From positions 304,414 through 368,413 of the forward strand of contig NZ_QQWI01000005.1 of assembly GCF_004125825.1 (NCBI RefSeq): 64,000 bases of DNA, given 5' to 3'. Origin of the DNA: Fusibacter sp. A1 (GTDB taxonomy: Bacteria > Bacillota > Clostridia > Peptostreptococcales > Acidaminobacteraceae). The translations under genes and the position numbers were made by a program. This document shows, one piece after another, positions 11,446 through 28,423 of the stretch (positions are counted from its first letter, which is position 1; every line of letters begins with the position of its first letter). Under the pieces are notes generated by a model. That model saw only the letters and a program-made list of their open reading frames with translations. It searched no databases and had not been told where the DNA came from.

Positions 11446-11640
11446 CACACCCAAAAATGCGGAGCACCCCAAACAGGGAGGCTCCGTATCGTTTCTTAGA
11501 GTTTTCTTAGAATACGATTATAGATTAGTGTAAGCCCTCTTTTATCGTAAATTGCATGCTATAATAAGTTATCAAATCAAAATGACAACACAGAAGATTT
11601 TGTGTTAAAATAACTGGTAGGTTTTTAAGGAGGGAGCATT

Positions 11641-12723
11641 ATGAACAAACGTTCATCGTCTTTTATATTTGGGGTTGTAATCGTCATCGTAGGTCTTTAT
11701 CTACTGGCTGACAACTTAAATCTTGGCATTGTAAATACCATCGATTTTGTAGACATCATCAGTGTCTTGTGGCCGATGCTCTTTATCGGTTGGGGATACG
11801 AGGCACTACAAAAAAGAAATTATGTGGTCGGAGCGATTTTCAGCAGCATCGGCTTACATTTCTTACTGGACAACCTGACATTCATCAGTCCGATTTTCGG
11901 ATTTGCGTCAAGCATAGTATGGCCGGCTTTCATCATCATATTGGGTGTCTACATTATGCTCGCTCCTCCTAAGGAAAAGCAGGTTAAAAGAAACAGCGAC
12001 TTCTCTTCAAGAGGCAGAAGCAGCAATAGCAGTCATAAGTTCAGAGAGTTCGATCCTGACACAGACAATACTGTCATCAGACCAGCAAAGGTTCAACGAC
12101 ACACAGGTAAAACTTCAGAAGCTAGCTTCTCCGATTCAATCGATCAAGTAATCTCATCGGTTGACGAGGTAGTTTCAAACATCAGTAGAAACGTGAAAGA
12201 AAATATTAAGGGTCACAGCGACACGACTTACACAGTGACTCTCTCAAAAGACTCGGATAAGCCAACTGTAGAAAGAATCTACGATGCAACACCAAAACCT
12301 GAGAGCTCAAAAGTCAATCTAAATAAAGAGACACCTAAACAAGAACAAGTTGAAACACAAGCTACAACAAAGACAAATCAAGAAGCTAATCAGAACCAGC
12401 AGCGTAAAGCTAAGAAAATGCGTTCCTATTCCGCAAGCTTTAATTCTAAAAAGCTTTTATTCAAAGAAGAAGACTTTGTAGACGGAGATAACACGATTGA
12501 TATCACTTGTGTATTTGGTGAAGTAAAACTAGGCATTCCAAGAGACGTCAATATCGAACTAGAAGGACAAGTCACACTTGGTGATTTGAAGTTCTTAAAT
12601 GAAAAATATGAAGGTTTCTCATCAGCGATAACTGACAGATATGTCTCCCCTAGCGGCGCGACAAAAACTGTACACATCAACGCTACTGTAATTTTAGGCG
12701 ACATAAAAATTAAATTGATTTAA
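11641..12723 (+). CDS. LiaF-like cell-wall-active-antibiotic response membrane protein (DUF2154-type C-terminus)
   Basis: N-terminal 4 TM helices and a low-complexity linker. C-terminal beta-rich domain with VFGEVKLGIP...ILGDIKIKL pattern. Confidence 0.5.
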   Translation: MNKRSSSFIFGVVIVIVGLYLLADNLNLGIVNTIDFVDIISVLWPMLFIGWGYEALQKRNYVVGAIFSSIGLHFLLDNLTFISPIFGFASSIVWPAFIIILGVYIMLAPPKEKQVKRNSDFSSRGRSSNSSHKFREFDPDTDNTVIRPAKVQRHTGKTSEASFSDSIDQVISSVDEVVSNISRNVKENIKGHSDTTYTVTLSKDSDKPTVERIYDATPKPESSKVNLNKETPKQEQVETQATTKTNQEANQNQQRKAKKMRSYSASFNSKKLLFKEEDFVDGDNTIDITCVFGEVKLGIPRDVNIELEGQVTLGDLKFLNEKYEGFSSAITDRYVSPSGATKTVHINATVILGDIKIKLI

Positions 12724-12771
12724 CACAAATGCCTCTCATGACGATATAATCTAGTGAGAGGTGTTTTTTAT

Positions 12772-13761
12772 ATGAAAAATGATAAATTTGATGAATTCTA
12801 TATGAAGCAGACCCAAGCCAAGAACAAGGAAAAAATGGGTAGAAGCAGCGAAGCTCTAAAATTGTATTTGGACATCATTGAAAATTACTTTCCCGACACA
12901 GATTATTCATTTGAACATGCAGTATTGCTACTAGAAAAAGCTAATCGTTTAGACGAAGCAAAATCAATTTGCACCACGGCGCTGGAGCGTATCAAATCCG
13001 GTGAAATGAAAGGCAATAAGTTTTTTTTTGAAACCCATCTCCTAAAGATAGACGAAAAAACATCAAGCAAAAAATCTGATCACCACTGGGACATACCTGC
13101 TTTTTTTAAAAACAGACCCTTAATTGTGGTAAGTGTATTTTATCTGCTTGCCGCGTTGATCTATTCCTTGCCCTCAAAAATATATAAGTTCATATTTATT
13201 GTTTTTATCGGAGTGGCGCTTGTCGTTCTATTTGAACTCTTAAAGAGTGCAAGAAAAAGCCTGTCGATCAAATTTCAATCCATAGCACTGATTTTTTCTT
13301 TGTTCATCGCGATGGCGGCTGCCGCACAACTCCCCCCACCCGACTGGACCAATTTCTTTTCATTACAATCAATAAGTGAAATGAATACCGAAACGACAAT
13401 AGAGCGATCCGTAGCACCTAATGAAGATAAGGATTCCAGCATCTCATCACAAGATGTAGATACCCTTGAAGCCATGTTTGAAAGCGACCTGGTGGTAAGT
13501 GAGTTATACATTGAGATTGATGATAATCTTATCAGCATATCCCTTTACCTTAAACCTGCCGCTACCACCGAAGAAGCAAAGAACGCCGTAAAATCGATAC
13601 TGCTGGAACTCAACAGCATTAAAGGCTATGAGCGACCAGATGATAATAGGATGGGCGACTTATACAAGGATTACAGCACCCAGATTCAAGTCTTCGACAG
13701 TTTCAGCAATCGTATCTTAAGAGGACAAGTTAGAAGATTCAATCAGAAGTTGAACTGGTAA
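12772..13761 (+). CDS. Hypothetical membrane protein (TPR-like N-terminus, 2-3 TM, C-terminal soluble domain)
   Basis: Start at MKNDKF behind a GAGAGGTG RBS. No recognisable catalytic motif. Confidence 0.4.
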   Translation: MKNDKFDEFYMKQTQAKNKEKMGRSSEALKLYLDIIENYFPDTDYSFEHAVLLLEKANRLDEAKSICTTALERIKSGEMKGNKFFFETHLLKIDEKTSSKKSDHHWDIPAFFKNRPLIVVSVFYLLAALIYSLPSKIYKFIFIVFIGVALVVLFELLKSARKSLSIKFQSIALIFSLFIAMAAAAQLPPPDWTNFFSLQSISEMNTETTIERSVAPNEDKDSSISSQDVDTLEAMFESDLVVSELYIEIDDNLISISLYLKPAATTEEAKNAVKSILLELNSIKGYERPDDNRMGDLYKDYSTQIQVFDSFSNRILRGQVRRFNQKLNW

Positions 13762-13846
13762 CTGAATTACAAGTAAATCAGTAAATAGAAAAGCCATCAC
13801 AACAACGTATTTTATATACGTATTGTGATGGCTTTTCTTGATAGGT

Positions 13847-14638
13847 TCAATCCATATTCTCAGGTGAAAAATCTCCTTTTGGCCCATGCCAACGAAATTT
13901 ATCTATCGTAGATTTTCCTATCTGAATCGCTTCTGCAGGGCAGTTATGTATGCATCTCATGCAAAGATAGCACCGATTGTTAAATGTCACTTTATGATCT
14001 ACGACAATGTTTGCACTAGGACAAATCCTTTGACATCTCCCACATAGAATACACCGTTCATCTGTTTTGAACTTCTTTTGTAGCATGTTTTCAAGAAGTG
14101 GATAGACGCCTTTGATTAGGTCTCCCAGTAGATAATCGCCGATTTTGGGCTTGTGGGAATAGTTATTGCCGTCCCCACTGATAATTGCTTTTGTAAAATC
14201 GGATACAACCTCAATTTCATCAAAATTCATCATGCTGATTGATTTTACCATACTTGAGTCTCTATCCTTAAAAGCCAATGCATCAGAACCGGGCATGAAT
14301 ACTTCAACCACACCTTTTACTTCGTACCCCTTTTTCTTAAACAGTTTTTCAGCAACTCTAAGCGCGTTGCCACTAAGAAAAGCCTTTGTAGCAAATAGAT
14401 AGACAGGCAGTTTGTTCACAGGTTCCATTTCTATAATAAACTTCTTAATGAACTTAGGTATGTCGCATGCGTAAATAGGAAACCCGAACACGAGAATGTC
14501 GCCTATCGACATGTCATTTGTAAAAGATTCAATGGAATTTCGTTTTACCAGCAAGTCAGCCGATTGCAAATTGCGTTCGATTATTTTACTGACGTATTCC
14601 GTATTGCCCGTCCCGCTAAAATAAAGTACTTGTATCAT
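13847..14638 (-). CDS. Flavodoxin-domain protein fused to 2x[4Fe-4S] ferredoxin (EFR1-like)
   Basis: MIQVLYFSGTGNTE flavodoxin loop. CILCGRCQRICP and CYLCMRCIHNCP clusters. GGAGGAGGAG RBS before the ATG at 14638. Confidence 0.7.
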   Translation of the reverse strand: MIQVLYFSGTGNTEYVSKIIERNLQSADLLVKRNSIESFTNDMSIGDILVFGFPIYACDIPKFIKKFIIEMEPVNKLPVYLFATKAFLSGNALRVAEKLFKKKGYEVKGVVEVFMPGSDALAFKDRDSSMVKSISMMNFDEIEVVSDFTKAIISGDGNNYSHKPKIGDYLLGDLIKGVYPLLENMLQKKFKTDERCILCGRCQRICPSANIVVDHKVTFNNRCYLCMRCIHNCPAEAIQIGKSTIDKFRWHGPKGDFSPENMD

Positions 14639-14798
14639 TTCTCCTCCTCCACTACTATAGATCCCTTCTTTCATCTATTCCCCTTTAATCCTTACTAATT
14701 GCAATTATTTGACTTGCATCACCCAAAACACGCATTGACATTAACGCAGCGTCATCGGGTATAATTGAATTGAAGTACTTCAAGAAAAGAGGATATCA

Positions 14799-14909
14799 AT
14801 GCTAATAACCGATGTATCTAAAAAGTATGCTGTCTCTACTAGAACCTTAAGATATTATGAAGAGCTTGGACTGATCACCTGCTCCGAAAATTGCTCTACC
14901 ATCAGTTAA
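14799..14909 (+). pseudogene. MerR-family HTH fragment (36 codons, truncated)
   Basis: MLITDVSKKYAVSTRTLRYYEELGLI is a classic MerR N-terminal HTH, then a stop. Upstream TTGACA-19 nt-TATAAT promoter with the MerR-type long spacer. Confidence 0.45.
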
Positions 14910-15367
14910 ATAGACTTGATACTTCAATCATCGACTTGAAGTATAAGCGTCAACTGGTGCGGTCTACACTGCAAACATTCGGTTCTGATGATTTAACTAA
15001 AGTGAATCTTAAGGCATTCCTAAGTCAACAGCTATTTTTTAGGTCATCCGATGAAAGGTGGACCAACATGATAGAAAATGATAGTCATATCACCATAGAT
15101 ATCGGCAAAGACTTAATCCCGATAGCCCTAGACGATGCAAAGTGCTCATTATTCAGTTCCATCAAAGAACTTAGAGAAACCCTATTAAAAGACTACGGCA
15201 TCGATTTGAAAAAAATCAGAGTAAAAGACAATCTAAATGACCTGTCTCCAAACGAATTTCAGATCTTAAACGACGATAAGGTCCTCATAAGAAAGCAAAT
15301 CAACTCTGAAAATCAACAGCTACAGGTTGATCAGATCATCACACAGTTGAAGGCGATAGTGCTGTAG
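14891..15367 (+). pseudogene. Orphan ORF with an FlhA/FHIPEP-like cytoplasmic-linker segment (likely relic of a type III/flagellar export gene)
   Basis: ITIDIGKDLIPIALD...LRETLLKDYGIDLKKIRVKDNLNDLSPNEFQILNDDKVLIRKQI aligns with the FlhA motifs LELEIGYGLIPLVD...IRRQ..ELG..VPPIRIRDNLQL.PNEY.I...G. No TM domain and no remaining cytoplasmic domain. Confidence 0.4.
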
Positions 15368-15402
15368 GACGATTGATGGCTAATCACACTTCATCTATAG
15401 TT

Positions 15403-15939
15403 CTATGCTTTAGCTAATTTTTTTACTTCTTGAAGCAGTAAAACACTAAAAACAACTTCAACTGCAATCATCAATACGGCTACTGTGACCGAAGTATAAA
15501 AACTACCAACGATCAGTGCCATCAGTGGAATAATAATTGCAAACACCTTATAGCTGGTTGATTTATAGATCCAACTATAGGGTAGTAAGTGTGCACCAAA
15601 TATCATCGCCATCACCATTACAAATTTATCAGGGCTTGTCGCATAGACCCACATGGCAATCAGCAGGTAAAGCATCTGGTTCATGGAAACTAAAAATCCC
15701 AACTGATCAATCGGATTATCCTTGCTGCTAAACTTGATGTTCATTAACTTTGAAATCAGGAATGAAACAGGCAATAATAACGATGTCGCACAGAAGGTCA
15801 ACAGATTCTTGGTTTCTATGACAAGCCCTGTACTATGGATAACGGCAATCACTGACCAGATGATAACAGAAGTCAGAATGAAGTGGATACCCTTCTTTTG
15901 ACTTTTCATACATTGGAGTCGTAATGTTTCTAATTTCAT
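15403..15939 (-). CDS. Hypothetical 5-TM membrane protein
   Basis: Hydrophobic, no motif recognised. Confidence 0.5.
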   Translation of the reverse strand: MKLETLRLQCMKSQKKGIHFILTSVIIWSVIAVIHSTGLVIETKNLLTFCATSLLLPVSFLISKLMNIKFSSKDNPIDQLGFLVSMNQMLYLLIAMWVYATSPDKFVMVMAMIFGAHLLPYSWIYKSTSYKVFAIIIPLMALIVGSFYTSVTVAVLMIAVEVVFSVLLLQEVKKLAKA

Positions 15940-16046
15940 GTTTTCCCCTTGATGTTCAAATAAGTTTGATCATACTCAACATTCTAATTATACTTGAATC
16001 AAAACATAGGATGTGGATTTTAAGGTAATTGTAATACTCAAAAACA

Positions 16047-16095
16047 GAGAAATCCCCGATAAATGACGCTTAGTCAACTATCGGGGATTTCTCTT
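16047..16095 (-). terminator. Terminator after the VOC gene
   Basis: 16-bp stem AGAGAAATCCCCGATA / TATCGGGGATTTCTCT, with a U-run on the minus strand. Confidence 0.55.
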
Positions 16096-16112
16096 GTAGT
16101 TTATCTAAACTG

Positions 16113-16478
16113 CTACCGACGGTCTTCAACAAACTGAACCTTGAATCCGTCCGGATCTTTGACATAAAAAAACCTCATCATAGGATTTGGTACATATACT
16201 TCTGATTGATCGTTGAATCCATTTTCAGTTAGTGTTGCCATCACATCTTCAAGCGTGCTATCCACCATAAAACCTACTGAGATGCCTTTTACTGGCGATT
16301 CAGGTTCGCCAGAATCGCAAATCAGTTCAAGTTCAGTCGTGCCACCGCCAAGAAAAGCGAGTTCAACATGCTCATTAGGCTTAAACCGCCTGTTCAACTC
16401 AAGTCCCACAATCCTTTGGTAAAAGTCGAGTGATACGTCAAGATCCTTTACATGTAGCGTGGTCCAGCAAAATCTCAT
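16113..16478 (-). CDS. VOC (glyoxalase/bleomycin-resistance) family protein
   Basis: 121 aa. MRFCWTTLHVKDLDVSLDFY ... typical paired beta-alpha-beta-beta-beta modules. Confidence 0.75.
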   Translation of the reverse strand: MRFCWTTLHVKDLDVSLDFYQRIVGLELNRRFKPNEHVELAFLGGGTTELELICDSGEPESPVKGISVGFMVDSTLEDVMATLTENGFNDQSEVYVPNPMMRFFYVKDPDGFKVQFVEDRR

Positions 16479-17860
16479 ACTGCTTCCTCCTTCAAAATCG
16501 CCTTGTCGGCTTGTATACCTTCGTGTGAGTCTTCCAAATGCCTTAGTTCGTTGAATAAGAATATCGCAGTCACTACAGATGCTGTAAAATCAGCAGTCGG
16601 ACCAGCAAGCCAGACTCCTGTAAGACCGATGAACTGCGGTAGTAAGATCAAGAGCGGAATCAGCACAAGCACTTGTCTTAATAAGCTTAAGAACATAGCC
16701 TTGGGAGCTTTCCCCACCGCCTGAAAATAGTTTGCACTGATAATCTGAAACCCGATGACAGGAAGCATAGATAAAAACAGCTTCATCCCTTTTGACGCCA
16801 GATCCACAAGTGCAGGATCATTATTGAAAAGACTGATTAGCCCTGTGGTCCAAAACTGTGTTAAAAGAAAACCGAATGATGAGAGTGCCGTACCGGCAAG
16901 TATCGCAAGTAAAAGGGTTTTTTTAACCCTATCAAACGCCTTTGCACCGTAGTTAAAACCGATGATCGGTTGTGAACCTTGGTTGATACCGAAGATAGGC
17001 ATTAAAAAGAAAATCGCAATTGCGTTAATCACAGTCATCGCACTAATCGCTAAATCCCCGCCTGTGGCCTTAAGTGCATTGTTCGCAAGTATGGTAACCA
17101 CACTTGCAGCAACTTGCATAGAGAATGGTGACATGCCTATGGAAAGAATGCTAAGTACTGTTTTTCCATCTAAAACAAGGTTTTTCAGTTTTAATTTAAG
17201 TTTACTCTTTGAAGATGTAAAGTGCATCAGAACCCATGTGGCTGTCAGTAACTGAGAAAAGACGGTTGCGACTGCGGCACCCTGTATTCCCATCCCGAAT
17301 CCAAAAATTAAAATCGGATCCAGTATGATATTGACTATCGCTCCGATAAGGACCGTATACATGGCAATTTTAGGACTTCCTTCGGATCTGACAATTGAAT
17401 TAAGTCCAAATCCCAATCCTTGAAAAATCGCACCTATAAGTATAACCGTCAAATACTGATCTGCAAAGCCGATGGTTACATCACTTGCCCCAAAAATTCT
17501 TAGTAGAGGCAGTTTGAAAATCAGACCTAGTACAGAAAGTGAACCCATGATAAGGATCAGTAGCGTCACCGCATTACCTAAGATTCTTTCAGCCAGTTCC
17601 TTATTGTTTTGCCCCAGCCTTATGGAAACCCTTGCGCCTGCACCGATGCCCACAAGCATCCCAAAGCCCATTAAAAGCGTCATTAGAGGCATGGATAAGC
17701 CTATGCCTGTCATAGGTAGCGGTCCAAGCTTACCGATGTAGATTCTGTCCACCACATTGTAAAGGGCGTTTACCATCATGCCGATAATCGCCGGTAGGGA
17801 ATACTTCCAAAGCAGTTTACCGACGGGTTCGTTTAAAAGTTGTTCATTCTGTCTCATCAT
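16475..17860 (-). CDS. MATE-family efflux transporter
   Basis: 461 aa. 12 TM. N-terminus LWKYSLPAIIGMMVNALYNVVDRIYIGK. 4-bp overlap with the VOC gene. Confidence 0.85.
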   Translation of the reverse strand: MMRQNEQLLNEPVGKLLWKYSLPAIIGMMVNALYNVVDRIYIGKLGPLPMTGIGLSMPLMTLLMGFGMLVGIGAGARVSIRLGQNNKELAERILGNAVTLLILIMGSLSVLGLIFKLPLLRIFGASDVTIGFADQYLTVILIGAIFQGLGFGLNSIVRSEGSPKIAMYTVLIGAIVNIILDPILIFGFGMGIQGAAVATVFSQLLTATWVLMHFTSSKSKLKLKLKNLVLDGKTVLSILSIGMSPFSMQVAASVVTILANNALKATGGDLAISAMTVINAIAIFFLMPIFGINQGSQPIIGFNYGAKAFDRVKKTLLLAILAGTALSSFGFLLTQFWTTGLISLFNNDPALVDLASKGMKLFLSMLPVIGFQIISANYFQAVGKAPKAMFLSLLRQVLVLIPLLILLPQFIGLTGVWLAGPTADFTASVVTAIFLFNELRHLEDSHEGIQADKAILKEEAV

Positions 17861-18317
17861 TCACCTTGTTGTCCTTTTCATCACAGCCTACATTTTTATA
17901 CACGCGGGCATTCTCACTCATCAAGTTGATTAGTCTAGTCAGTTCATTCAAATCATGCTCTGACATTCCTTTAGTTAATGTATTGTGCCAGTCACTAGCC
18001 ACATTTTTTAGCTCAGCATGAAGTTCCATGCCTCTTTGAGTCAAATAAAGCCTCAACATCCTACTATCCGATTCGTCTCTTTTTCTTTCTATAATTCCGC
18101 TCTTTTCAAGTTTCATCGCCGCCCTGGTCACTGTTGTCTTGTCAAGTTCAAGTCGTCTTGAAACATCTTCCTGAGAACTTCCAGGATTCAGATGGAGAGT
18201 AAAAATGAAGGCCAGCTGTCCTCCACCTATTTCTGAAGTTTTTGTACGTTCGGCAAAGAAGGCTTGTTGCGCTCGATATAATAATGAAATATGTCTACCT
18301 ATTGGAAAGTTACTCAT
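17844..18317 (-). CDS. MarR-family transcriptional regulator
   Basis: 157 aa. wHTH LELDKTTVTRAAMKLEKSGIIERKRDESDSRMLRLYLT. Overlaps the MATE gene start, so it probably regulates the pump. Confidence 0.8.
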   Translation of the reverse strand: MSNFPIGRHISLLYRAQQAFFAERTKTSEIGGGQLAFIFTLHLNPGSSQEDVSRRLELDKTTVTRAAMKLEKSGIIERKRDESDSRMLRLYLTQRGMELHAELKNVASDWHNTLTKGMSEHDLNELTRLINLMSENARVYKNVGCDEKDNKVNDETE

Positions 18318-18336
18318 TTTAAACCTTTCTTACAGT

Positions 18337-18392
18337 AATATAGTTGACAATACAACTATATATAGATTTAGTTGTATTGTCAACTATATTAT
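18337..18392. promoter_or_regulatory. 54-bp palindromic operator upstream of the marR-MATE operon
   Basis: 22-bp inverted arms AATATAGTTGACAATACAACTA / TAGTTGTATTGTCAACTATATT with a 10-bp spacer. Each arm is internally symmetric (TAGTTG...CAACTA). Confidence 0.55.
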
Positions 18393-18401
18393 TTCGCCCC
18401 T

Positions 18402-19115
18402 CTAATTAATCTCTTTTCTAATGACAAATAACTGAATACTACCAAATGCGCCTACAATTTTCCGCTCGTAAGTGCAACCGCGGTTATCTAGGATAGCTCC
18501 TATATCCTTAATGATGTCTCCGCTCCGCTCGATGAGCTTTACAAAAAGGTAACCAAATAAATTGTCATCTAAGGGATAGTCATAGTCCATCAAGAGTAAA
18601 ATGCCATCTTTTTTTAACACACGAAGTAGTTCTGTCATTGCAATATCGCCGTCTGCATATCCGGAGAAAGCCATCGTACAGACCACTGTGTCAAAAGACT
18701 CATCAGGATATGGCATTTGCTCCACGTTACCCTTAACAAAGTTGACTGGTCTATTGAGTTTTCTCATTTTGGCAATTGCCCTATCCACCATGGTCTGGTT
18801 ATAGTCAAGCGCATGAATCATAAACTCAGGTGGGTATAGTGACAAAAGATAGCCTGGTCCAAAGGAAACTTCAAGTAGCTTCTCGCCTTTAAGATAAGGA
18901 AGAACTGACCGCAACCACTTTTTCCACAGTGGAAAACAAGCCATGAATCCGTCATAAGCTTTTGCATAACGGGTATAAATCTCATTTCTTCTGTTGGTAT
19001 AATCAAGTCGGTCTACAGGTGCTTGCGTATACCTGAATTTGCTTCTAGAAACCTTAAACATACTGACCACTTCCCTTTCGATACTCATTCTATACCCCTT
19101 TGAGAGGTCTTTCAA
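18402..19115 (-). CDS. Class I SAM-dependent methyltransferase
   Basis: Motif I LEVSFGPGY, post-I acidic residue, VVCTMAF motif. Confidence 0.7.
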   Translation of the reverse strand: MKDLSKGYRMSIEREVVSMFKVSRSKFRYTQAPVDRLDYTNRRNEIYTRYAKAYDGFMACFPLWKKWLRSVLPYLKGEKLLEVSFGPGYLLSLYPPEFMIHALDYNQTMVDRAIAKMRKLNRPVNFVKGNVEQMPYPDESFDTVVCTMAFSGYADGDIAMTELLRVLKKDGILLLMDYDYPLDDNLFGYLFVKLIERSGDIIKDIGAILDNRGCTYERKIVGAFGSIQLFVIRKEIN

Positions 19116-19182
19116 ATGAGCTGTTTTTTTCTTTTGTGATTAGTGGTACAATAAAGTATAATTCGACAAAAGGAGAAACATA

Positions 19183-19629
19183 ATGGACATGACGAGTATG
19201 ATTTTAATTGGTGTGGTAACAAGTTTAATGATCGGGGGCGCTGTCGCAGTACATTTTTACAAGAAGAAAAATATTGCTAAGTTATTCGAGCAAGTTTATG
19301 AATCTTCAAAACAAGTTCCAAAGCAAAAGAAAAACAGTTTTCTATTACTAATGTTCAAAGAAGCGATGACTCCACCAGCTAAGCCGGTAAAATCAAAAGA
19401 CAAATCAAAAGGTAAAGGCAAAGGCAAATCAAAGGCAAAACCAGCAACAACACCAAATCAAAGCAAATTCAACAACCCAAAATATGTAGAAATTCAGTTG
19501 ATGCAGATGGCAAAAGTCCTCAAAGACAATTCTATCGCTAAAGATAAGCCGATGAAGCAGTCACTTCGCTTACTAAAAGATTACCTTGCTTGGGAAGCAG
19601 AAAAGAATTCCCAGAGCAAAAGCGCTTAA
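19183..19629 (+). CDS. Hypothetical single-TM protein with Lys-rich (KSKDKSKGKGKGKSKAK) segment
   Basis: ORF with AGGAG RBS, no homology recognised. Confidence 0.4.
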   Translation: MDMTSMILIGVVTSLMIGGAVAVHFYKKKNIAKLFEQVYESSKQVPKQKKNSFLLLMFKEAMTPPAKPVKSKDKSKGKGKGKSKAKPATTPNQSKFNNPKYVEIQLMQMAKVLKDNSIAKDKPMKQSLRLLKDYLAWEAEKNSQSKSA

Positions 19630-19637
19630 TAAAAATA

Positions 19638-19685
19638 AAGCCCGAAGCATGTCTATTTAGGTTAGACAAGCTTCGGGCTTTTTTA
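19638..19685. terminator. Bidirectional rho-independent terminator
   Basis: AAAGCCCGAAGC...GCTTCGGGCTTTTTTAT. Confidence 0.6.
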
Positions 19686-19687
19686 TA

Positions 19688-20938
19688 TTAGACATCCACT
19701 TTTTCAATCAACCTTAACAGGTATTTCGACTGGAATTTCTCACTCACAAGCAGTTGCTTTACCGGTGGCAACTTTAAAAACGCACCTGTAAAAGCAGCCA
19801 TAAACTTGTGGCTGGTCATCGCCTGGTTATCAAAAATCAAATTGTGTAGGGTATCGGTCTCGATTGCTTCAAGTACCAACTTATGAACTGTGTTGACAGG
19901 CGTAAAGATTCTAATTTCTCTCGGTTTCATCTCAATCGCATCAAGTTTACATACCCTTTGGCATACACCACAACCTAGACAGAGTTCATCATCAAAACTG
20001 ACTTTTCCATCGTCGTTTTTAGTAAAGCACCCTACCGGACAGACCGCAATACACTTTTTACAGCTGACGCATTTGTCATTCATCGCAGCAATAAAATTTG
20101 ATGAGCTGATCGCCTGGGGTATTCCCATCTTTTTTGCGCCCTTTAAAGCCATACAGCAGCAAGAGCAGCAGTTACAGATGAATCCGACTCCTTCTTTTAC
20201 ATTTTCTGCAAACTGTATCAGATTATTGTCGTAGGACACTTTTAAGATCTCAAATGCTTTTTCTTTAGAAATCAACTTGGAATAGCCGTGTTTTGACAGT
20301 GAATGCGATAACCCGTTGATAGATAAACATACTTCTTGTGGCGCGTCGCAGTTCTCACCTAAATGTTCTGCCTTGTGCCTGCAGTAGCATCTGCTTACGC
20401 CAACACTTTCTGCGTTTTCAATAATTTTTGTGGCTCTCTCGTAGTCGAGTACATACACTTCATCTGATGGCTTAACCGTGTTCTCATTCACAAGGATTCT
20501 TCCTATCGGCGTTTTTAACGACAATAGCTTTCTCATAAAATCCTCTTCTGTCTCCAAATACTGATGAAACAGTTCACTTAAAAGCTTCTGATCAAAATGA
20601 CCGCCGGTTCTCATCAGAGCGAACTCGAAAAAACCGATCATCGGTGGTGGTACTACGTATTTTTGCTCTTTGGTGTCATTCATATCCAGTAAAAGCGCTT
20701 TTTCAGCAAGCCCTTCTAGAATTTTGAATGTCTCCTCTTCAGTCATCTTCCAAATCTTTGCCGCATTCTTCACACTGAATGGTTTTATTGGAAGCAAAGA
20801 GACTAAAGAAGCCTCCTCATGGGTAAACATGACCTTAAGTATCTCATATAAGACCTCCGCTTCTGGTGCCCCTTGAGGAAATCTATTATATCTGTCGATC
20901 AGTTCTTTGTAACCTGTTCTGCCTGTTAAGTGAGCCAT
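19688..20938 (-). CDS. Fe-S protein: unknown N-terminal domain + CxxCxxCC (YkgJ-type) motif + 2x[4Fe-4S] ferredoxin motifs
   Basis: CNCCSCCC fits CxxCxxCC. CVSCKKCIAVCP and CLGCGVCQRVCK are ferredoxin motifs. Confidence 0.6.
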   Translation of the reverse strand: MAHLTGRTGYKELIDRYNRFPQGAPEAEVLYEILKVMFTHEEASLVSLLPIKPFSVKNAAKIWKMTEEETFKILEGLAEKALLLDMNDTKEQKYVVPPPMIGFFEFALMRTGGHFDQKLLSELFHQYLETEEDFMRKLLSLKTPIGRILVNENTVKPSDEVYVLDYERATKIIENAESVGVSRCYCRHKAEHLGENCDAPQEVCLSINGLSHSLSKHGYSKLISKEKAFEILKVSYDNNLIQFAENVKEGVGFICNCCSCCCMALKGAKKMGIPQAISSSNFIAAMNDKCVSCKKCIAVCPVGCFTKNDDGKVSFDDELCLGCGVCQRVCKLDAIEMKPREIRIFTPVNTVHKLVLEAIETDTLHNLIFDNQAMTSHKFMAAFTGAFLKLPPVKQLLVSEKFQSKYLLRLIEKVDV

Positions 20939-21019
20939 TGTTCTTCTCCGTTTGCTGTCGATTTGCTTTGGTTGATTAAGGGGCTAGCACAAGGCTAGCT
21001 ACTACGCGAGAGTTTGTTT

Positions 21020-21571
21020 CTATTTGTCATCTGGATTGATCAGGCCTTTGGGATCGTCAAAGATAGCACCCATCTTGCCAAAATGATGATAGATAGATAA
21101 CTCATTCAGATAACCTTGTATCTCAAGTTCAGGATCACCACTTGCGATAGCTATCTGATCCACAAAATTGTCCTTAGGATAAAATGCAGTCAATAATACC
21201 GATTCTCCAGGTGCTATGTTTAGCTTATTGCCAGTCATTTCGACCTTACATTTATTCGTAGTTCTAGAGTTTTCACCGGTGATTATCGGATAATACAAGT
21301 ATACGTTGTTCTGAACAATGGTATGTTTACTTTCGTTCTTGAGCTGAACAGTATAGACATTGCCCTCAGGCAGCTGTGAATACTCTACCAGTTCAAATTT
21401 AATATGGTCAAGCGCGTATGGATCAATTATAACAGCTTCTACAGCTTCATTACTTACGATGACTTTATCTTCAATAGTCTCAGTCATCTGCGTATTTGGA
21501 TTCACTTGAATGGTAATCATCAAGGCAATACAAGCAACGATTGTGATTATCACGGTTATCAAGTACTTCAT
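21020..21571 (-). CDS. Hypothetical signal-anchored protein
   Basis: N-terminal TM. 4-bp overlap with the upstream VOC gene. Confidence 0.4.
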   Translation of the reverse strand: MKYLITVIITIVACIALMITIQVNPNTQMTETIEDKVIVSNEAVEAVIIDPYALDHIKFELVEYSQLPEGNVYTVQLKNESKHTIVQNNVYLYYPIITGENSRTTNKCKVEMTGNKLNIAPGESVLLTAFYPKDNFVDQIAIASGDPELEIQGYLNELSIYHHFGKMGAIFDDPKGLINPDDK

Positions 21572-21936
21572 ATGCTCGCACCAAAAAAATTTACGATATT
21601 TCCGTCAGGATCCCTAAACCAAAACGATCTGGTTCCCCATGGGTAAGATTGTGGTAGTTTCAGTATTTCAATATCCATCCCTTTAATCCTTTCATATGCT
21701 TCATCTACCTGATCTACTTTTACTCCTACAGTAAAGTTCCCTGATCCCGCACCATGCATCGAACCGGGAGCCATTTCTTCCATTCCTTCAACACAAAATA
21801 TAGTAAGGGATGCGCCGGTCGTCTTGATTTCTGCGTGATAATCATCCCCCTCAGATCTTGTGTTTAATATCTTACAGTAAAAATCCACTAACAAGGGTAC
21901 GTTATTTGTGATTATGCTTATACCTACAAATTCCAT
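21568..21936 (-). CDS. VOC family protein
   Basis: 122 aa glyoxalase-fold (GASLTIFCVEG...FRDPDGNIVNF). Confidence 0.7.
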   Translation of the reverse strand: MEFVGISIITNNVPLLVDFYCKILNTRSEGDDYHAEIKTTGASLTIFCVEGMEEMAPGSMHGAGSGNFTVGVKVDQVDEAYERIKGMDIEILKLPQSYPWGTRSFWFRDPDGNIVNFFGASI

Positions 21937-22134
21937 GTGAATCCTCGCTTTCTGTATTTATATTCACTTATGATTCTATTTTACTAAATCAAAAGGCAAT
22001 AATATACGATTTAAGAAAAACGTAATAGATTGAATTACAATTACCTTAAATTAAGCAAATAGCAACCCATATGATATATAATTGACCTATATGGCGTTAT
22101 TATACATGTCTTGTGCATTCAGAAAGGAACACTC

Positions 22135-23940
22135 ATGAAAAAGGCTCTTTTTATTTTACTCATCCTGTCCGCATCATTGACTATAGCCTGTGATTCATCA
22201 GTGGATACACCTACTACGAATTTTGATGAAGCAGCCCAGATAGAGCAACTTCAACCCATCGATACAAAACGCTTTGAAGAACTTTTCGACGCAAACGACT
22301 TCTCTGTCCTCTTAGACGAATATACGCTTGAAACGGTAGCAACCATGTCTGAGCAAGCTAAAATCGATTATGTACACGCAGCACTTGCCAGTCAGGATTA
22401 TCAGCTTGCTCTAAAGTTTTTAACTGAGTTGACTCTCCCTTTCTCAGTCTTACAAGACCTTCTTGGCAATAAGGTGATCTTGCTAAGCGGTGAAGCTTTT
22501 CTAGAGGATTTGGTCGTCTATCAGGATAACTTCGCAGACGACCCAGACTACAATGTCTTACTTAGTCAGTTCACCTATGAGTTTCAGTCAGAAGTCGAAG
22601 GCAAGAATATTCTACTGAGAAGCTTTAAAACGAATCCACAACATTCCCCTACGTTACGACTGCTCACCTTTATGAAAATGGGAGAAAATCTTAAGCGAAC
22701 GATAGCATTTTTAAACGAATCCCTTACCACCTATGACAATAAATCCGAAGTTTACGAACTGATGGCTGAGGCCTACCGTACGTATACGTTTTATTACGAA
22801 GGCATGACTTGCTATGAAAAGGCCAATGAACTGGATTCTGAGCTGTATCTTGAACGTTATATTCTCTCGTGCATTGATGCTAAGCGATCAATAAAGGCTT
22901 ATGAACTCTTTATCAATAATGAATCATTTGATTTTGAAGACGTAACGATCCAACGAGTAGTCGAATCTCTGATCGGTCGTGGCGCGTTTGATGAAGCATC
23001 AGACTTGATTGCAAAAATGCAAGCGGATACTCCAGAACGAATGATCTGGTATCTGATGGAAGCCATTACAAAGATACGTCAGGGTGAACTAGACGAAATA
23101 GAAGCGGTTCTTGACCGCGCAGAGTCAAATGGAGTGGATAGGAAAAGCTTAGTATCCACTATCGGATTAGGAGACTTTGAGGACATAGCCGCGGATGATT
23201 GGATGGTAGAGGTCTTTAAGGACAATTACTTGTATACACCTGGAGACTATACCCCACCACAAGAAGACTTGACTAGGGAAGAACTTGCTAGAAATGCCTT
23301 TGATGCTTTAAAAGACCCCGAGGACCGATTCACCTTCTTACTTGATGAAGAAGAGATGGCGATGACCTTTGAAGCTCCCGAATTTTTAAAGAAAGACCAA
23401 CTACTCTATTTCAAGTTCAGCATCTTCGACGAGGCTGTCGACGACTGGATCATCGCTACACTTGACGAGGTAGCCCGAGATGACTCGCAGTGGTTGATTC
23501 TAGACATGCGTGGAAACCACGGCGGCATGTTGCAAACGGCATACGCCATAATAGACGAACTGACAGGCAGAGCTAATCTTTTTTATCAAGTAGATAAAAA
23601 CGGAAGACAGACGCCCTATTCCGCTACAGCATCCAGGCGTCCTTTTGAGAAAATCATCGTACTGCTCGATCATGAATCCGCAAGCTCGTCAGAAGTAGTC
23701 GCCCTTTCACTAAAAAAGCGTCTTAAAAATGTGACTATCGTCGGTGAAACAAGTTTTGGAAAAGGTGTCGGACAGCACGTCTTTTATGACCAAAAGTCAG
23801 GACTCACCTTATATCTGGTATCCTTCTACTGGAACGTGATAGAAGAAAACATACAAGAGGTCGGTATAGATCCGGATATAATCTATGATTTTTCTACTGA
23901 GGAAAATGTGATTGATAAGGTACTTGAACTGGTTCGGTAG
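22135..23940 (+). CDS. Lipoprotein with C-terminal S41 (tail-specific/CtpA-like) peptidase domain
   Basis: Lipobox LTIAC after the signal peptide. Ser/Lys dyad motifs HESASSSEVVALSLKK and TSFGKGVGQ. Start at MKKALF (AAAGGAA RBS), not the longer ORF start at 22111. Confidence 0.7.
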   Translation: MKKALFILLILSASLTIACDSSVDTPTTNFDEAAQIEQLQPIDTKRFEELFDANDFSVLLDEYTLETVATMSEQAKIDYVHAALASQDYQLALKFLTELTLPFSVLQDLLGNKVILLSGEAFLEDLVVYQDNFADDPDYNVLLSQFTYEFQSEVEGKNILLRSFKTNPQHSPTLRLLTFMKMGENLKRTIAFLNESLTTYDNKSEVYELMAEAYRTYTFYYEGMTCYEKANELDSELYLERYILSCIDAKRSIKAYELFINNESFDFEDVTIQRVVESLIGRGAFDEASDLIAKMQADTPERMIWYLMEAITKIRQGELDEIEAVLDRAESNGVDRKSLVSTIGLGDFEDIAADDWMVEVFKDNYLYTPGDYTPPQEDLTREELARNAFDALKDPEDRFTFLLDEEEMAMTFEAPEFLKKDQLLYFKFSIFDEAVDDWIIATLDEVARDDSQWLILDMRGNHGGMLQTAYAIIDELTGRANLFYQVDKNGRQTPYSATASRRPFEKIIVLLDHESASSSEVVALSLKKRLKNVTIVGETSFGKGVGQHVFYDQKSGLTLYLVSFYWNVIEENIQEVGIDPDIIYDFSTEENVIDKVLELVR

Positions 23941-24017: not shown

Positions 24018-25757
24018 TCACTCCATATTAAACGGATACTGATTCAGCACTAGGTAAAACATGACAGGTTCTAACGATTGAACAAGCTCGGCATCTTCAC
24101 CTAAAAGGGCTAACTCATCGCCATAGACCACTACCTTGTCTAACTTGCCTTCTTTGTATAATTCAATATTTTCTTGGATTTCATCACTAAACATGTAACT
24201 GACTTCATCCATCACCACATGCTGTGCATCCCAGTAAGCTTCGTTCTTGACCATCCTAAACACGTCGTTCATGGTCATGCTATAATCTTGGTTGTCTTTC
24301 CAATCGCTTACTATAAAAGGTCCATTATAAAGCGTCGTATCAGCACTTGTACCAAACGACTCCCCCATACTCTCTGCAAAGGCTTGATTCACAGGATAAA
24401 AGCTTGGAAAAGTCAACAGCTTTTCAAAGTAAGGTATCGGTCGTTCAAGAGTCACTTGTAAGGTGTGATCATCAATAGGCTTTACACCAAGCTCACTTGG
24501 ATCCACATCTCCATTCATCACTGTTTCATAGTTCTTAAACGCTGCAATTTCAATCATAAACTGATACATCATCTGGGTCTTAGGATCAGCAAGTCTCTTC
24601 CATGAATAGGCAAAATCCTCAGCGGTAACAGGTGCGCCATTCGACCACACCGCATTTTCCCTCAACTTAAAGGTATAGTTCAGTCCATCCTCGCTTTTAT
24701 GATAAGACTTTGCTACACCAAATTCCAAAACCTCTTTTTCACCAAGCGAAAATAGGCCCTCCATGGTATTCCCCAAGATTTCGAATGAAAATAAATCGGT
24801 GGCTTTATTCGTATCCAAGCTAGGAATATCCGTCCGTGTTGCAAGATGAAGCACTTGCCTTCCTTGGTCGTCTGCTTGTGTGCTTGCTTGCTTGTAAGAA
24901 ACCCGTCCTCCAAAGGAATGACCCACGATCCCTTTCACATAGGACTTTACCAGTTCAAAACGACGCCTCTGGTAAAGCGGAACAATTACGGCTTCCTCTT
25001 CAATCAACATCCTCTCAAGACTCTGAACCGCCAACACTCTTTCAACATAGCTATTGGCAAGGTCTGAATGCTTAATATGATCCACTACCTCATCATAGAT
25101 TTCATTTGAAAATCCAGCAGTATTATAATCACCATCCGTAACCCACATTTCTAAAAAAGTCATCGGGTCTGGATAATCAGGTCCCCACCCTTCATATAGC
25201 ATATGAATAGGAACATCCTTGGGATATCTTTGCGATGAAAATGGTCTTTGAATCAGCTCGACGGTCATTCCATCCAAAGTGGATTCAATACTTTCTTTTA
25301 TTCTATCTGATATGCTGTAAATACTAGGACCATCAAACGAGTAGAAGTGAATATGTGCATTTGTGAAACTTAGCTCTTCTTTTGCCATATTCCAGTACTC
25401 TCTAGCTAGAACAGGATTGTAATGCATCCAACCTTCCTGATTGAAAGCCCTATAGTCCGTTCCCTTATCAAACACAAAGTTTTTAGGCACAAGATAATCA
25501 GCAGTAATAAAGTCATCATAGCCAGCCATATGAATAAAACTTCCTTTATCAATTGCTAAAGAAATAGCCTTTCTTGCATGAACATTCTTCATCAAAACAT
25601 AAGGATCCACATATGTTTCTTCTTCACTCTCAATCGCAACTGGCTCATCGACTACCTGAAGTGTATTTTCCTCATTAGACCTGGTGGTACAAGCCGTCAG
25701 TAAAAATAGCATCATAAAGATAATCAGTATCCTTTGAAAAAACTTCATTCTTAGCAC
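24018..25757 (-). CDS. Family-5 (Opp/Dpp-type) ABC substrate-binding lipoprotein, apparently circularly permuted
   Basis: Lipobox LLTAC. Residues ~60-290 match the C-terminal half of SBP_bac_5 (VHARKAISLAIDK...VPLYQ). Residues ~300-579 match the N-terminal half (NYTFKLRENAVWSNGAPVTAEDFAYSWKR...NGPF...YW). Confidence 0.65.
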   Translation of the reverse strand: MLRMKFFQRILIIFMMLFLLTACTTRSNEENTLQVVDEPVAIESEEETYVDPYVLMKNVHARKAISLAIDKGSFIHMAGYDDFITADYLVPKNFVFDKGTDYRAFNQEGWMHYNPVLAREYWNMAKEELSFTNAHIHFYSFDGPSIYSISDRIKESIESTLDGMTVELIQRPFSSQRYPKDVPIHMLYEGWGPDYPDPMTFLEMWVTDGDYNTAGFSNEIYDEVVDHIKHSDLANSYVERVLAVQSLERMLIEEEAVIVPLYQRRRFELVKSYVKGIVGHSFGGRVSYKQASTQADDQGRQVLHLATRTDIPSLDTNKATDLFSFEILGNTMEGLFSLGEKEVLEFGVAKSYHKSEDGLNYTFKLRENAVWSNGAPVTAEDFAYSWKRLADPKTQMMYQFMIEIAAFKNYETVMNGDVDPSELGVKPIDDHTLQVTLERPIPYFEKLLTFPSFYPVNQAFAESMGESFGTSADTTLYNGPFIVSDWKDNQDYSMTMNDVFRMVKNEAYWDAQHVVMDEVSYMFSDEIQENIELYKEGKLDKVVVYGDELALLGEDAELVQSLEPVMFYLVLNQYPFNME

Positions 25758-25881: not shown

Positions 25882-26706
25882 CTATTGCTTTTTTGGCCCT
25901 TTTGCAACAAAAACTCCGCTATTTTTTGTAATCTTGATGTAGCCTTCATTTAGAATACGGTCATTCAATAGTTCGTATAATTCATTGATACGTTCATTTG
26001 TCATTACCTCGTCGATATTAAGGTGACCTTTCATCGATAGCATGTAATCGATAAGGGGCTGTGCATCGGTTATCTGTAATGAATCCTCATAATACCTTAC
26101 TTCAACCGAATCAAAATATTCCCTTAGTTGCGCTTGCCCGTTCTCTAGACCGAACTCATGGGCAACAGAAAAAGTTTTAGCATCAAGTCGAGAGTCAAAA
26201 TCCGAAAGGATTTCTTTCATCTCTCTCAAATGGTCCAGTCCGTTTGTAGAAGCATAAAATGTTCCGTTTGATTTTAATATTCTGGCCACTTCTCCAATGG
26301 CTATCTTGCGGTCAGATACATGATATAACATATGGTTTGCTATCACACAGTCAGCATGGTTGGACGCAAACCGTGAATTTTGAATATCGTCGACTTCGTA
26401 ATTGCATACTTGACCGATTTCATTCAAGTTCTCCTTGGCTGAAAGAATCATTCCTTGTGAAATATCAGAAAGGCTAATCTTTATATTTTGAGGGATTCTT
26501 TCTATGTTTTCCTTCCATATGCTCCCATTGCCGCATCCGAATTCTACTACAACATGGTTTGAGTTCAATTCATATTGATCATAGATCCAGTTTTGCCAAC
26601 TATAATGATTCGTACTATAGATTTTGTGCAGATTTTGTCTCGTGGATAAGTTATTCTCTGTGCTGTATTGCTTTTTTACAATTTCTCTATCATTTGCTCT
26701 AGACAT
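25882..26706 (-). CDS. Class I SAM-dependent methyltransferase
   Basis: VVEFGCGNGS motif I. Confidence 0.7.
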   Translation of the reverse strand: MSRANDREIVKKQYSTENNLSTRQNLHKIYSTNHYSWQNWIYDQYELNSNHVVVEFGCGNGSIWKENIERIPQNIKISLSDISQGMILSAKENLNEIGQVCNYEVDDIQNSRFASNHADCVIANHMLYHVSDRKIAIGEVARILKSNGTFYASTNGLDHLREMKEILSDFDSRLDAKTFSVAHEFGLENGQAQLREYFDSVEVRYYEDSLQITDAQPLIDYMLSMKGHLNIDEVMTNERINELYELLNDRILNEGYIKITKNSGVFVAKGPKKQ

Positions 26707-26814
26707 GTTTTACCTAATCCTTCATTTAGTCTCATCCATACGCCAGCTTATACCATTATACCAATTTAAAAGGATTTAATACTTGATTTATGGTAATTGT
26801 AAAAATAGAATAAA

Positions 26815-26840
26815 AACGACATCACAAGTGTGATGTCGAC
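26815..26840 (-). terminator. Terminator after the GGDEF gene
   Basis: GACATCACAC-TTGT-GTGATGTC hairpin plus a U-run on the minus strand. Confidence 0.5.
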
Positions 26841-26855
26841 CTCATAAGGCTCAAT

Positions 26856-27575
26856 TCAATTACTTTCGATATCAGAATCATTCTTCTCAAAAGCAACAAC
26901 TCTATTTCTCCCTGTTTGCTTTGCCTTATAAAGGGCTTGATCTACATAACTAATAATATCTTCAAAATCAATTTTACTTTCATCTGAATAGTTGATTACT
27001 CCAAAACTTGAGGTTACTTGAGTTACTGGAGAAAAATCAAAGTTTGAAATAAGTTGTCTTATAGCTTCAGAAAGTTTGAGTGCTGTCTCTAATGTGCTTT
27101 GTGGCATTAAGATCATGAACTCCTCGCCACCCCAGCGAGCAAAGGTATCTGACTCTCTGAGTCTACTTTGCACCAATTCAGAAAGTTTCTTTAAAACAAA
27201 ATCACCAATATCATGGCCATAGGTATCATTAACATTTTTAAAATGATCAATGTCAAACATGATAATCGAAAATCCTATACCATATCGTCCTATTCTACTA
27301 AATTCATATTTGAGTACTTCAATAAATCGTCTTCTGTTGAATATTCCTGTCAGTTGGTCTGTTACAGATAACCGTTTGATTTCTTTTAAATTTTCTTCTA
27401 GTTCTCTATAAAGCAAGATATTCCTATGTACAACATCGAACAGCAAATCTCTCATTATTCTATTATCATTATCTACTGCGATGGACTCCAATATTGCTTG
27501 AACAAACATGTTTTGGCGGCCTTCACTGTCTTCATGGTTAAGAATATCGATTAATCCTTGCATTGAAGTTACCAT
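26856..27575 (-). CDS. GGDEF-domain diguanylate cyclase
   Basis: Active-site GGEEF (ARWGGEEFMIL), I-site-like RxxD, FDIDHFKNVND. Confidence 0.85.
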   Translation of the reverse strand: MVTSMQGLIDILNHEDSEGRQNMFVQAILESIAVDNDNRIMRDLLFDVVHRNILLYRELEENLKEIKRLSVTDQLTGIFNRRRFIEVLKYEFSRIGRYGIGFSIIMFDIDHFKNVNDTYGHDIGDFVLKKLSELVQSRLRESDTFARWGGEEFMILMPQSTLETALKLSEAIRQLISNFDFSPVTQVTSSFGVINYSDESKIDFEDIISYVDQALYKAKQTGRNRVVAFEKNDSDIESN

Positions 27576-28423
27576 ATGTGATCTTCTCCATTCGCCTCAA
27601 TCCCATCAATTCCTATGTCGGTAATATCATACAACTTATCAATAATCACCTTAACCTGTTCCGCACCTCTTATCAGACTGCCATGTTGAGGTGCGATGAG
27701 TTCAATGTCAAGTTCCCTACATTTATCTAGTGTCTTTCTAAGTGCAAGATTTGATGTCATAATAATTTGATGAAATCTAATAATTCCCGGCATAAAGCAT
27801 GTATCTCTACCAATTGGGCAATCATCATAGCTCGAGCATTCGCTACATTTCTCACTGACATCCATAAATAAATCCCAGTGCTTCCCATACGCGCCGAAAA
27901 TATCTGAACTGAAAAGTGTCTTTGTCTGCTCATCATAAGTTACAAAACTTCCTGGTGAATGGGTATAAGGTGTATTTATGAATTTTAGTCTTCTTCCCGT
28001 TCTAAATCCCCATGAGTTTCTAATCTTGTTAATACACACTAATTTTGATGTTGTAGAGTAATGTTGAATAAAGATATTGTTTTGTTTTTGAGAAATAATC
28101 TCTAATTCATTATTACTGATAATACTTTCAAAATTTGAAACACTTCCTACTAGATCGGGATCATAATGCTGATAAATCAAGCGTACAATTTGGTCAGGAA
28201 GTATACCAGTCATCAATACTTTCATCATCACACTACTAAAATCCGGTCTGCTACCACCATCGATCAAGACCCCTTCATCGCCTTCATAGATCAGGTAGGG
28301 GTTGGAATGTAAACCGTTCTCTTTGTCGTTGTAGCCTACCCAGTATATCCCTTGTGCCACTTCAGCCGCTTTATCATAATCCATAAGTTTCCTCCTGCTA
28401 TTATTCATCCGAAGATTACTCAT
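27569..28423 (-). CDS. MBL-fold diiron-type (flavodiiron-protein N-domain / ODP-like) sensor protein, translationally coupled to GGDEF
   Basis: GIYWVGYNDKENGLHSNPYLIYEGDEGVLIDGG matches the FDP beta-lactamase-like domain. Candidate ligands are QHYDPD, YTHSPGS, SSDIFG and APQHG. 7-bp overlap with the cyclase. Confidence 0.55.
   Translation of the reverse strand: MSNLRMNNSRRKLMDYDKAAEVAQGIYWVGYNDKENGLHSNPYLIYEGDEGVLIDGGSRPDFSSVMMKVLMTGILPDQIVRLIYQHYDPDLVGSVSNFESIISNNELEIISQKQNNIFIQHYSTTSKLVCINKIRNSWGFRTGRRLKFINTPYTHSPGSFVTYDEQTKTLFSSDIFGAYGKHWDLFMDVSEKCSECSSYDDCPIGRDTCFMPGIIRFHQIIMTSNLALRKTLDKCRELDIELIAPQHGSLIRGAEQVKVIIDKLYDITDIGIDGIEANGEDHIW

Follow-up and report, generated by a model that had tools for sequence, protein, structure and literature searches.

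OppA-type proteins are textbook Venus-flytrap receptors, and the two-stranded hinge and interleaved domain I of cluster C are taken as fixed. A gene of Fusibacter sp. A1 raises the question of whether this fold can be encoded with its two halves in the opposite chain order and whether such a protein would still serve as a receptor. The gene lies on the minus strand of the window, i.e., the 64-kb stretch (64,000 nucleotides) of contig NZ_QQWI01000005.1 that was analyzed here. It was confirmed to encode an OppA-type substrate-binding protein (SBP) with its halves in swapped order, as a preliminary description of this DNA had proposed. We consider it highly probable that the product is a functional membrane-anchored peptide receptor (a permuted OppA of cluster C) that feeds a permease encoded elsewhere. 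The features of the gene, in the order of the protein chain, are:

24018-25757, minus strand: whole coding sequence, permuted SBP_bac_5 lipoprotein (translation, Pfam, phmmer and NCBI match)
25689-25757, minus strand: residues 1-23, signal peptide and lipobox L-T-A-C, with Cys23 as predicted lipidation site (translation)
25614-25688, minus strand: residues 24-48, acidic tether from lipid anchor to fold (low confidence in the predicted structure; variable in the family)
24963-25613, minus strand: residues ~49-265, lobe 2, corresponding to OppA domain III and the canonical C-terminal half (phmmer, alignment with E. coli OppA, 3o6p)
25164-25190, minus strand: residues 190-198, motif GWGPDYPDP (translation, alignment)
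24861-24962, minus strand: residues 266-299, retained hinge crossing, old C-terminal segment of domain I, and junction (translation, alignment with the canonical protein P0037)
24021-24860, minus strand: residues 300-579, lobe 1, corresponding to OppA domains Ia, II and Ib and the canonical N-terminal half (phmmer, alignment with E. coli OppA, Foldseek)

Swapped halves of an OppA-type lipoprotein

The reading frame extends from a GTG at 25757 to the stop codon at 24018-24020 and encodes 579 aa with no internal stops, in agreement with the intact frame reported earlier. The N-terminus of the protein, MLRMKFFQRILIIFMMLFLLTAC, carries a lipobox, L-T-A-C, with the cysteine at position 23; read from the translation, the stretch ...MMLFLLTAC satisfies the pattern [LVI][ASTVI][GAS]C, and the signal peptide and lipobox of the preliminary description are both present.

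The window protein was used as a phmmer query against PDB sequences. By this search, residues 31-297 of B. anthracis OppA (6npo) were matched by query residues 298-573 (1.9e-65) and residues 306-541 by query residues 56-291 (3.4e-34). The same exchange was found for L. monocytogenes OppA (5kzt; 5-279 to query 291-573 and 288-524 to query 56-291) and for PrgZ (4faj; 40-327 to query 281-574 and 332-560 to query 55-291), and each half of the query was about 35-45% identical to 6npo and 5kzt. The first half of the protein therefore corresponds to the C-terminal half of OppA and the second to the N-terminal half, i.e., the alignments reveal the permuted and not the normal N-to-C order, as had been suspected. 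Because the two pieces abut and jointly cover the canonical protein, a complementarity well above chance expectation, this is a true circular permutation and not a partial duplication. The protein was matched in two stretches by the Pfam family SBP_bac_5 (PF00496), at 182.6 bits (E = 1.5e-53; cut-off, 32.4 bits). Among NCBIfam equivalog models, all 14 matches fell far under their cut-offs, the best being OppA NF011684 at 194.1 bits against 947.

Canonical cluster C proteins (6npo, 5kzt, and the S. typhimurium and E. coli OppAs) are arranged as Ia-II-Ib-III-Ic with two inter-lobe crossovers, whereas the window protein runs from its tether through III and Ic to the junction and on through Ia, II and Ib (III-Ic-Ia-II-Ib). 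The junction of the old C-terminus and old N-terminus, which had been expected near 24.9 kb, was placed at residues ~292-299 (STQADDQG), bases 24861-24884. In the alignment with the canonical protein P0037 (555 residues), the match stops at residue 554, opposite query residue 294, and resumes with residue 45, opposite query residue 300, such that the old termini are linked almost directly, by a few residues. At the other end of the chain, lobe 1 terminates in the strand ...VMFYLVLNQ, from which canonical proteins continue into domain III.

For mapping of the cut, the query was reordered to canonical order and aligned with mature E. coli OppA (EcOppA) and eight canonical relatives. The last residues of the query were found opposite EcOppA ...YYYEINN (~279) and its first folded residues opposite PFNDVRVR (~283), which places the cut at YYYEINN|QKPPFNDVRVR, mature residues about 279/283. 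The domain boundary of S. typhimurium OppA reportedly lies at 270/271. In Borrelia burgdorferi OppA4 (BbOppA4), domain I comprises residues 30-62, 187-285 and 504-530, domain II residues 63-186, and domain III residues 286-503 (PMC5736914), and in AliD lobe 1 consists of domains I and II and lobe 2 of domain III, residues 297-582 (PMC11192437). By these published limits for BbOppA4 and AliD, the cut falls in the first inter-lobe crossover, where the chain passes from domain I into domain III, and is no more than about 10 residues away from the nominal boundary between the two domains. The second crossover (EcOppA 486/487, query 265/266) is left intact. As the cut severs one hinge crossover of the two, the sequence of each lobe is almost uninterrupted and a single covalent hinge crossing remains, as opposed to the two of canonical OppA. 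The new termini thus lie in the I-to-III crossover, and the lipid tether is predicted from the alignment to join the fold at domain III, with the old termini joined.

An AlphaFold2 model built with the alignment of the permuted family described below was of high confidence (mean predicted local distance difference test score, pLDDT, 88.7; predicted template modelling score, pTM, 0.84). Disorder was confined to residues 1-5, residues 22-43 (the lipobox through most of the tether, with pLDDT under 50) and residues 491-494, and the segment that includes the hinge crossing and junction scored 91-95. Foldseek against the PDB returned OppA-type matches with a root-mean-square deviation (rmsd) of 1.6-2.9 Å, including lobe 1 on 6npo and 5kzt (rmsd 1.6 Å over ~241-258 columns) and the domain III fragment 3o6p (target-normalized TM-score, TMt, 0.79 over 220 columns). 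From these superpositions each half is predicted to have the expected OppA-type fold, and the model is consistent with the three-domain, bilobed architecture of canonical OppA (lobe 1, domains I and II; lobe 2, domain III). In the same search of the PDB, no solved chain aligned beyond ~265 columns, i.e., about half of the model, and as judged from the model no solved structure has the chain order of the window protein. The structure prediction that had been proposed as a check gave a confident model in which both halves appear correctly folded.

An 8-residue insertion at residues 491-498 (window 24264-24287, part of ...YSMTMNDVFRMV...) is lacking in all other aligned family members and in the canonical relatives that were aligned, and is the only low-confidence patch within the fold.

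Residues of canonical OppA that clamp the peptide are retained. In a 48-sequence alignment of the permuted family, the motif GWGPDYPDP shows no variation at G190, W191, P193, Y195 and D197, and conservation of D194 is at least 90%. Asp194 of the window protein aligned with EcOppA Asp419, which binds the α-amino group of the peptide. The conserved Trp and Asp of GWxxDY that clamp the peptide N-terminus are thus present in the window protein. The role of the equivalent Asp and Trp has been described for AliD and AliB (PMC11192437).

A conserved family of permuted receptors

Tandem SBP arrays, which are prone to misjoining, are common in this clade, and a permuted order could in principle arise from misassembly of two tandem oppA copies or belong to a decaying pseudogene. 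The distribution of the arrangement among relatives makes this extremely unlikely. An identical protein is recorded at NCBI as a MULTISPECIES: unclassified Fusibacter entry found on two contigs, the longer of 622,685 bp. Among the best 120 homologues, 49 were collinear with the query across more than 450 residues, a fragment had the same order, and 70 were swapped relative to the query, i.e., canonical. The 49 collinear proteins, which are a lower bound and are 34-53% identical to the query, come from independent genomes, metagenomes and assemblies, match the query end to end and share the same termini and junction; this is the outcome of the search of relatives for the same permutation that had been suggested. 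Misassembly was rejected on the basis of the two contigs and the 49 homologues. A search for DNA repeats in and around the window gene gave none that were significant, and no second SBP fragment was present in the 64-kb window. The pseudogene reading was likewise rejected: the frame is intact, all family-invariant residues are kept, and the structure prediction is confident. The artefact is thus effectively refuted, and the window gene is a member of a conserved family of permuted OppA-type receptors in Clostridia.

Forty-eight permuted sequences, 34-52% identical to the query, align end to end with 31 invariant columns. Common to the family are the lipobox cysteine (at least 90% conserved), an acidic tether that differs in sequence and length among members, a first helix NVNARKAIA..., a last strand ...FYLxFN and a junction of the old termini that is conserved in length (FGGDYTYKxAxTxxxxDGKKIIRL). 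The median tether was 31 aa in the permuted proteins versus 23 aa in their canonical relatives. In an exhaustive HMMER search over 1.84 billion cluster representatives, the same permuted order was found in ~27 of the 150 best 50%-identity clusters. Hosts of the family include Fusibacter (Eubacteriales), Vallitalea and Natranaerovirga (both Lachnospirales), and uncultured-genome and metagenome assemblies; the named hosts cover two orders of Clostridia. A profile scan of genome contigs with the family alignment, an approach not suited to determining taxonomic distribution, gave matches that among those listed were mostly canonical OppAs of Bacillales and Staphylococcus, with one further permuted locus, that of an uncultured Fusibacter (L006).

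Permuted OppA-type proteins were not described in the literature searched, which was limited to open-access papers such that absence is not proof; only TpMglB-2 and engineered permutants were found. TpMglB-2 (Tp0684) of Treponema pallidum, of 'Cluster Bc', is a natural circular permutation of an ATP-binding cassette (ABC) binding protein (PMC4990184) and is the one natural precedent for such a protein found in the open-access literature. It resembles the window protein in being a lipoprotein or tethered protein of a conserved subfamily (in spirochaetes and Gram-positives), and TpMglB-2 itself still binds ligand (PMC4990184). By contrast, TpMglB-2 is a type I, cluster B sugar binder in which just three strands of one lobe have moved (PMC4990184); it gains a fourth hinge crossing, whereas the window protein loses one, and its permuted part bears little similarity to its canonical counterpart, whereas the halves of the window protein match theirs at 1e-34 to 1e-65. 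The window protein matches PF00496 and OppA structures only and does not have the cluster B fold with N-lobe strands moved to the C-terminus that defines 'Cluster Bc'. TpMglB-2 may therefore be viewed as an analogy of principle and not of membership. Engineered permutant biosensors (e.g., PMC6335823) likewise tolerate new termini and joined old termini with ligand-induced closure kept; these proteins are artificial, derive for the most part from clusters B and D (ribose- and maltose-binding proteins), and were not selected for permease docking.

Because both halves are still clearly alignable, the family is an unusually clean case of permutation. It is well populated, has one hinge strand cut and the membrane tether moved to the other lobe, yet still heads oppBCDF operons, and so offers a natural experiment on the influence of hinge connectivity and of tether position on closure and docking; for engineering it provides natural split and insertion sites for peptide biosensors. 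It also has consequences for annotation. The permuted proteins currently carry just the name 'ABC transporter substrate-binding protein' and score below the cut-offs of all curated equivalog models; if they were aligned collinearly, or modelled by homology with OppA as template, half of the chain would be threaded wrongly.

Operon linkage in relatives and the role of the window copy

Genomic context was examined for 18 genes of type 1, i.e., of the permuted register cut in the I-to-III hinge, as in the window protein. Type-1 genes were first in a complete oppB-oppC-oppD-oppF arrangement in five relatives at four loci, with collinearity confirmed by tblastn; the remaining 13 were orphans or members of tandem arrays that lack a permease. 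These loci are:

L002, Vallitalea okinawensis: two operon-heading type-1 genes, in two consecutive oppBCDF operons
L003, Natranaerovirga pectinivora: operon-heading type-1 gene, oppBCDF
L086, a 3.6-Mb contig: operon-heading type-1 gene, oppBCDF
L087, a 195-kb metagenome contig: operon-heading type-1 gene, oppBCDF
Window (1 gene), Fusibacter L001 (5), L006 (2) and GCA_002754915.1 (5): 13 type-1 genes with no permease within at least 8 kb

Since five relatives head oppBCDF operons, the permuted topology most likely serves an ABC importer. In lipoprotein anchoring and in the placement of relatives within oppABCDF operons, the family is also like Gram-positive OppAs. Loci L086 and L087 share a CYTH gene, SBP-oppBCDF, DUF3899, trigger factor (tig) and clpP, with clpX also in L086; the CYTH gene is kept in L003, and DUF3899 is kept in L091, a locus of a different permuted register (see below). 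The synteny of these four loci suggests that the operon was inherited vertically across genera.

The window copy had been described as an orphan, and this description holds: by tblastn with OppB, OppC, OppD and OppF of a relative, permease and ATPase genes were not found adjacent to it, and weak generic ABC-ATPase similarity was detected only at ~50.4-51.1 kb of the 64-kb window. The orphan state belongs to the window copy and to several Fusibacter-like paralogues and not to the whole family. Binding-protein genes located away from permease genes are known for Borrelia burgdorferi OppA1-5 and for pneumococcal AliC/AliD (PMC5736914, PMC11192437), and the window gene and the five-gene array of Fusibacter fit the same pattern, although the orphan paralogues of Borrelia and the pneumococcus have canonical chain order. 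A canonical-order oppA followed by oppBCDF is present in Fusibacter sp. 3D3 (L045 8001-13583), which reveals that permeases potentially able to serve orphan permuted SBPs exist in the genus.

Based on these findings, we propose the following route for the window protein. After Sec export, the protein would be lipidated at Cys23, and an acidic tether of ~25 residues would lead straight into domain III (lobe 2). A single crossing, on a long β-strand of residues 258-270, would then carry the chain into lobe 1, where it would traverse the formerly C-terminal part of domain I and the few-residue join to the old N-terminus, continue through Ia, II and Ib, and end where canonical OppA would enter domain III. 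A peptide would be held in the inter-lobe cleft by Trp191 and Asp194 of GWxxDY, and the loaded protein would dock on an OppBCDF-type permease that, for the window copy, would be encoded outside the 64-kb window and probably be shared with paralogues. Peptide binding by the window protein and its use of a distant permease are what we infer from the family and its operons.

Several observations weigh against a working receptor of this type. No OppB or OppC was detected by tblastn in the 64-kb window, and 13 of the 18 type-1 genes with visible context lack a permease. The branch that leads to the window protein is long, with just 53% identity to the nearest relative, and the protein bears the low-confidence 8-residue insertion noted above. 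Its overall two-lobe arrangement is a prediction, as judged by pTM. Finally, Shine-Dalgarno spacing is poor for both candidate starts of the gene. The identical NCBI protein is 576 aa and begins three codons later, at an ATG at 25748, which is likely the real start. A Shine-Dalgarno-like AAAGGA lies 3 nt ahead of the GTG at 25757 and 12 nt ahead of this ATG; because it is badly spaced for both, the start codon is unsettled. The ambiguity spans 25746-25757. A scan for promoters and terminators at the window gene gave none beyond shuffle expectation, and the 124-bp upstream spacer is without a promoter-like site.

The neighborhood of the window gene includes, at 22111-23940 on the plus strand, a gene whose 609-aa product is predicted to be a lipoprotein (LTIAC lipobox) and has an S41 peptidase domain at its C-terminus. 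The gene is convergent with the SBP gene and 77 bp from the stop codon of the latter. This arrangement could pair peptide production with capture or be coincidence. Upstream of the SBP gene, genes for an ODP-family metallo-β-lactamase-fold protein, a GGDEF diguanylate cyclase and a methyltransferase occupy 25882-28423 on the minus strand. At L001, the five-gene permuted array is directly followed by a gene for a TPR-GGDEF protein (20230-21716).

These neighbors raise the alternative that the orphan copy senses peptides, or is a surface protein that works with a different partner, be it cyclic di-GMP signaling, a peptidase or pheromone capture of the PrgZ type. No permease is encoded within 64 kb; the window gene is on the same strand as, and downstream of, the ODP, GGDEF and methyltransferase genes and is convergent with the S41 peptidase lipoprotein; a TPR-GGDEF protein directly follows the L001 array; and PrgZ is among the best solved matches. 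However, members of the family head complete oppBCDF operons, and orphan OppA paralogues that share one permease are normal, as exemplified by the five binding proteins of Borrelia burgdorferi (PMC5736914). The GGDEF adjacency occurs at two loci only, with differing gene orders, and the neighboring proteins have no sensor-type partner domain for an SBP. We thus regard a sensor role as improbable and favor a peptide receptor that feeds a distant permease.

The L001 array itself (10001-20136) consists of five tandem permuted paralogues in one Fusibacter genome, 571-581 aa in length and 40-46% identical to the query, with no permease nearby, and points to strong local amplification of the permuted family.

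Origin of the permutation and further registers

The preliminary description regarded the permuted fold as the product of a tandem duplication trimmed at both ends. Duplication is plausible, as fused double SBPs exist, but simple trimming at the N-terminus would have removed the signal peptide. Since the permuted proteins keep both signal peptide and tether, the N-terminal loss has to be explained by an in-frame deletion within the gene or by the acquisition of a new leader; if a deletion, it would lie between the tether and domain III of the first copy. The permutation may plausibly have originated from a tandem duplication whose copies were fused in frame and then lost their outer halves.

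Neighbor-joining (NJ) trees were built on 'un-permuted' sequences of 120 taxa and, with 100 bootstraps, of 39 taxa. Monophyly of the permuted proteins had 0-3% bootstrap, and a canonical clade with 85% support was nested among them. The backbone has near-zero branch lengths with no arrangement supported, so neither a single nor a multiple origin can be claimed from it. These trees leave room for a different history, in which the permuted family arose several times, or in which half-genes were split at the hinge and re-fused in reverse order: a single permuted clade is missing and the canonical clade is nested inside. Fission would also have a natural break point in the hinge loop; the domain-swapped dimer of AliC hinges on loop 290-294, between α7 and β14, just before the I-to-III crossover (PMC11192437). 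Set against this, the tree backbone is unsupported in any arrangement, and all permuted members agree in their termini and in junction length. For every permuted member, 8-30 permuted matches outrank the first canonical match. Fused double SBPs with one signal peptide, as the duplication model needs, are on record, and split half-genes were not seen. Multiple origin or fission is, in our view, rather unlikely; that the family arose once is favored here but not claimed.

Two further registers were found. In the second, the cut is inside domain III. P0268/P0219 of Anaerorhabdus sp., a 551-aa protein found under at least 8 NCBI accessions and on at least 8 contigs, is of this kind: residues 36-191 of P0268 correspond to 6npo 384-542 and residues 196-547 to 6npo 34-380. 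The P0268 gene (L091 8001-9656), which encodes a lipoprotein starting in mid-domain III, heads an oppBCDF-DUF3899 operon that is syntenic with the type-1 operons, and is thus the one type-2 relative with linkage to opp permease and ATPase genes. In the third register the cut is inside domain II, as in the metagenome proteins P0137 and P0267 (660 and 661 aa), which were obtained independently from Logan and ENA and in which residues 99-505 correspond to 6npo 151-542 and residues 511-623 to 6npo 34-145. Both registers join 6npo ~542 to ~34 by 4-6 residues, like the query, and both carry extra residues at the restored I-to-III crossover, which may represent a leftover C-terminal tail and tether. 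After un-permuting, their nearest neighbors were type-1 permuted proteins, by a small margin.

It is thus conceivable, although we put the chances slightly below even, that this clade of Opp receptors has been 're-windowed' repeatedly round one closed sequence circle, with at least three natural registers that share the same join of the old termini. In that case, new chain topologies would have a standing source in tandem SBP arrays and fused double SBPs, and a Venus-flytrap receptor would remain capable of productive docking on an ABC permease with just one covalent hinge strand. For protein evolution, plausible fused intermediates and two further registers are already at hand in the databases.

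Fused multi-SBP proteins, which are candidate intermediates for permutation by duplication, were also recorded. In P0240 (1037 aa) and P0172 (1238 aa), two complete OppA-type SBPs are fused in frame and share one signal peptide, and P0121 (2704 aa) and P0175 (2843 aa) are giant proteins with at least 4 SBP repeats; each of the four comes from one contig only.

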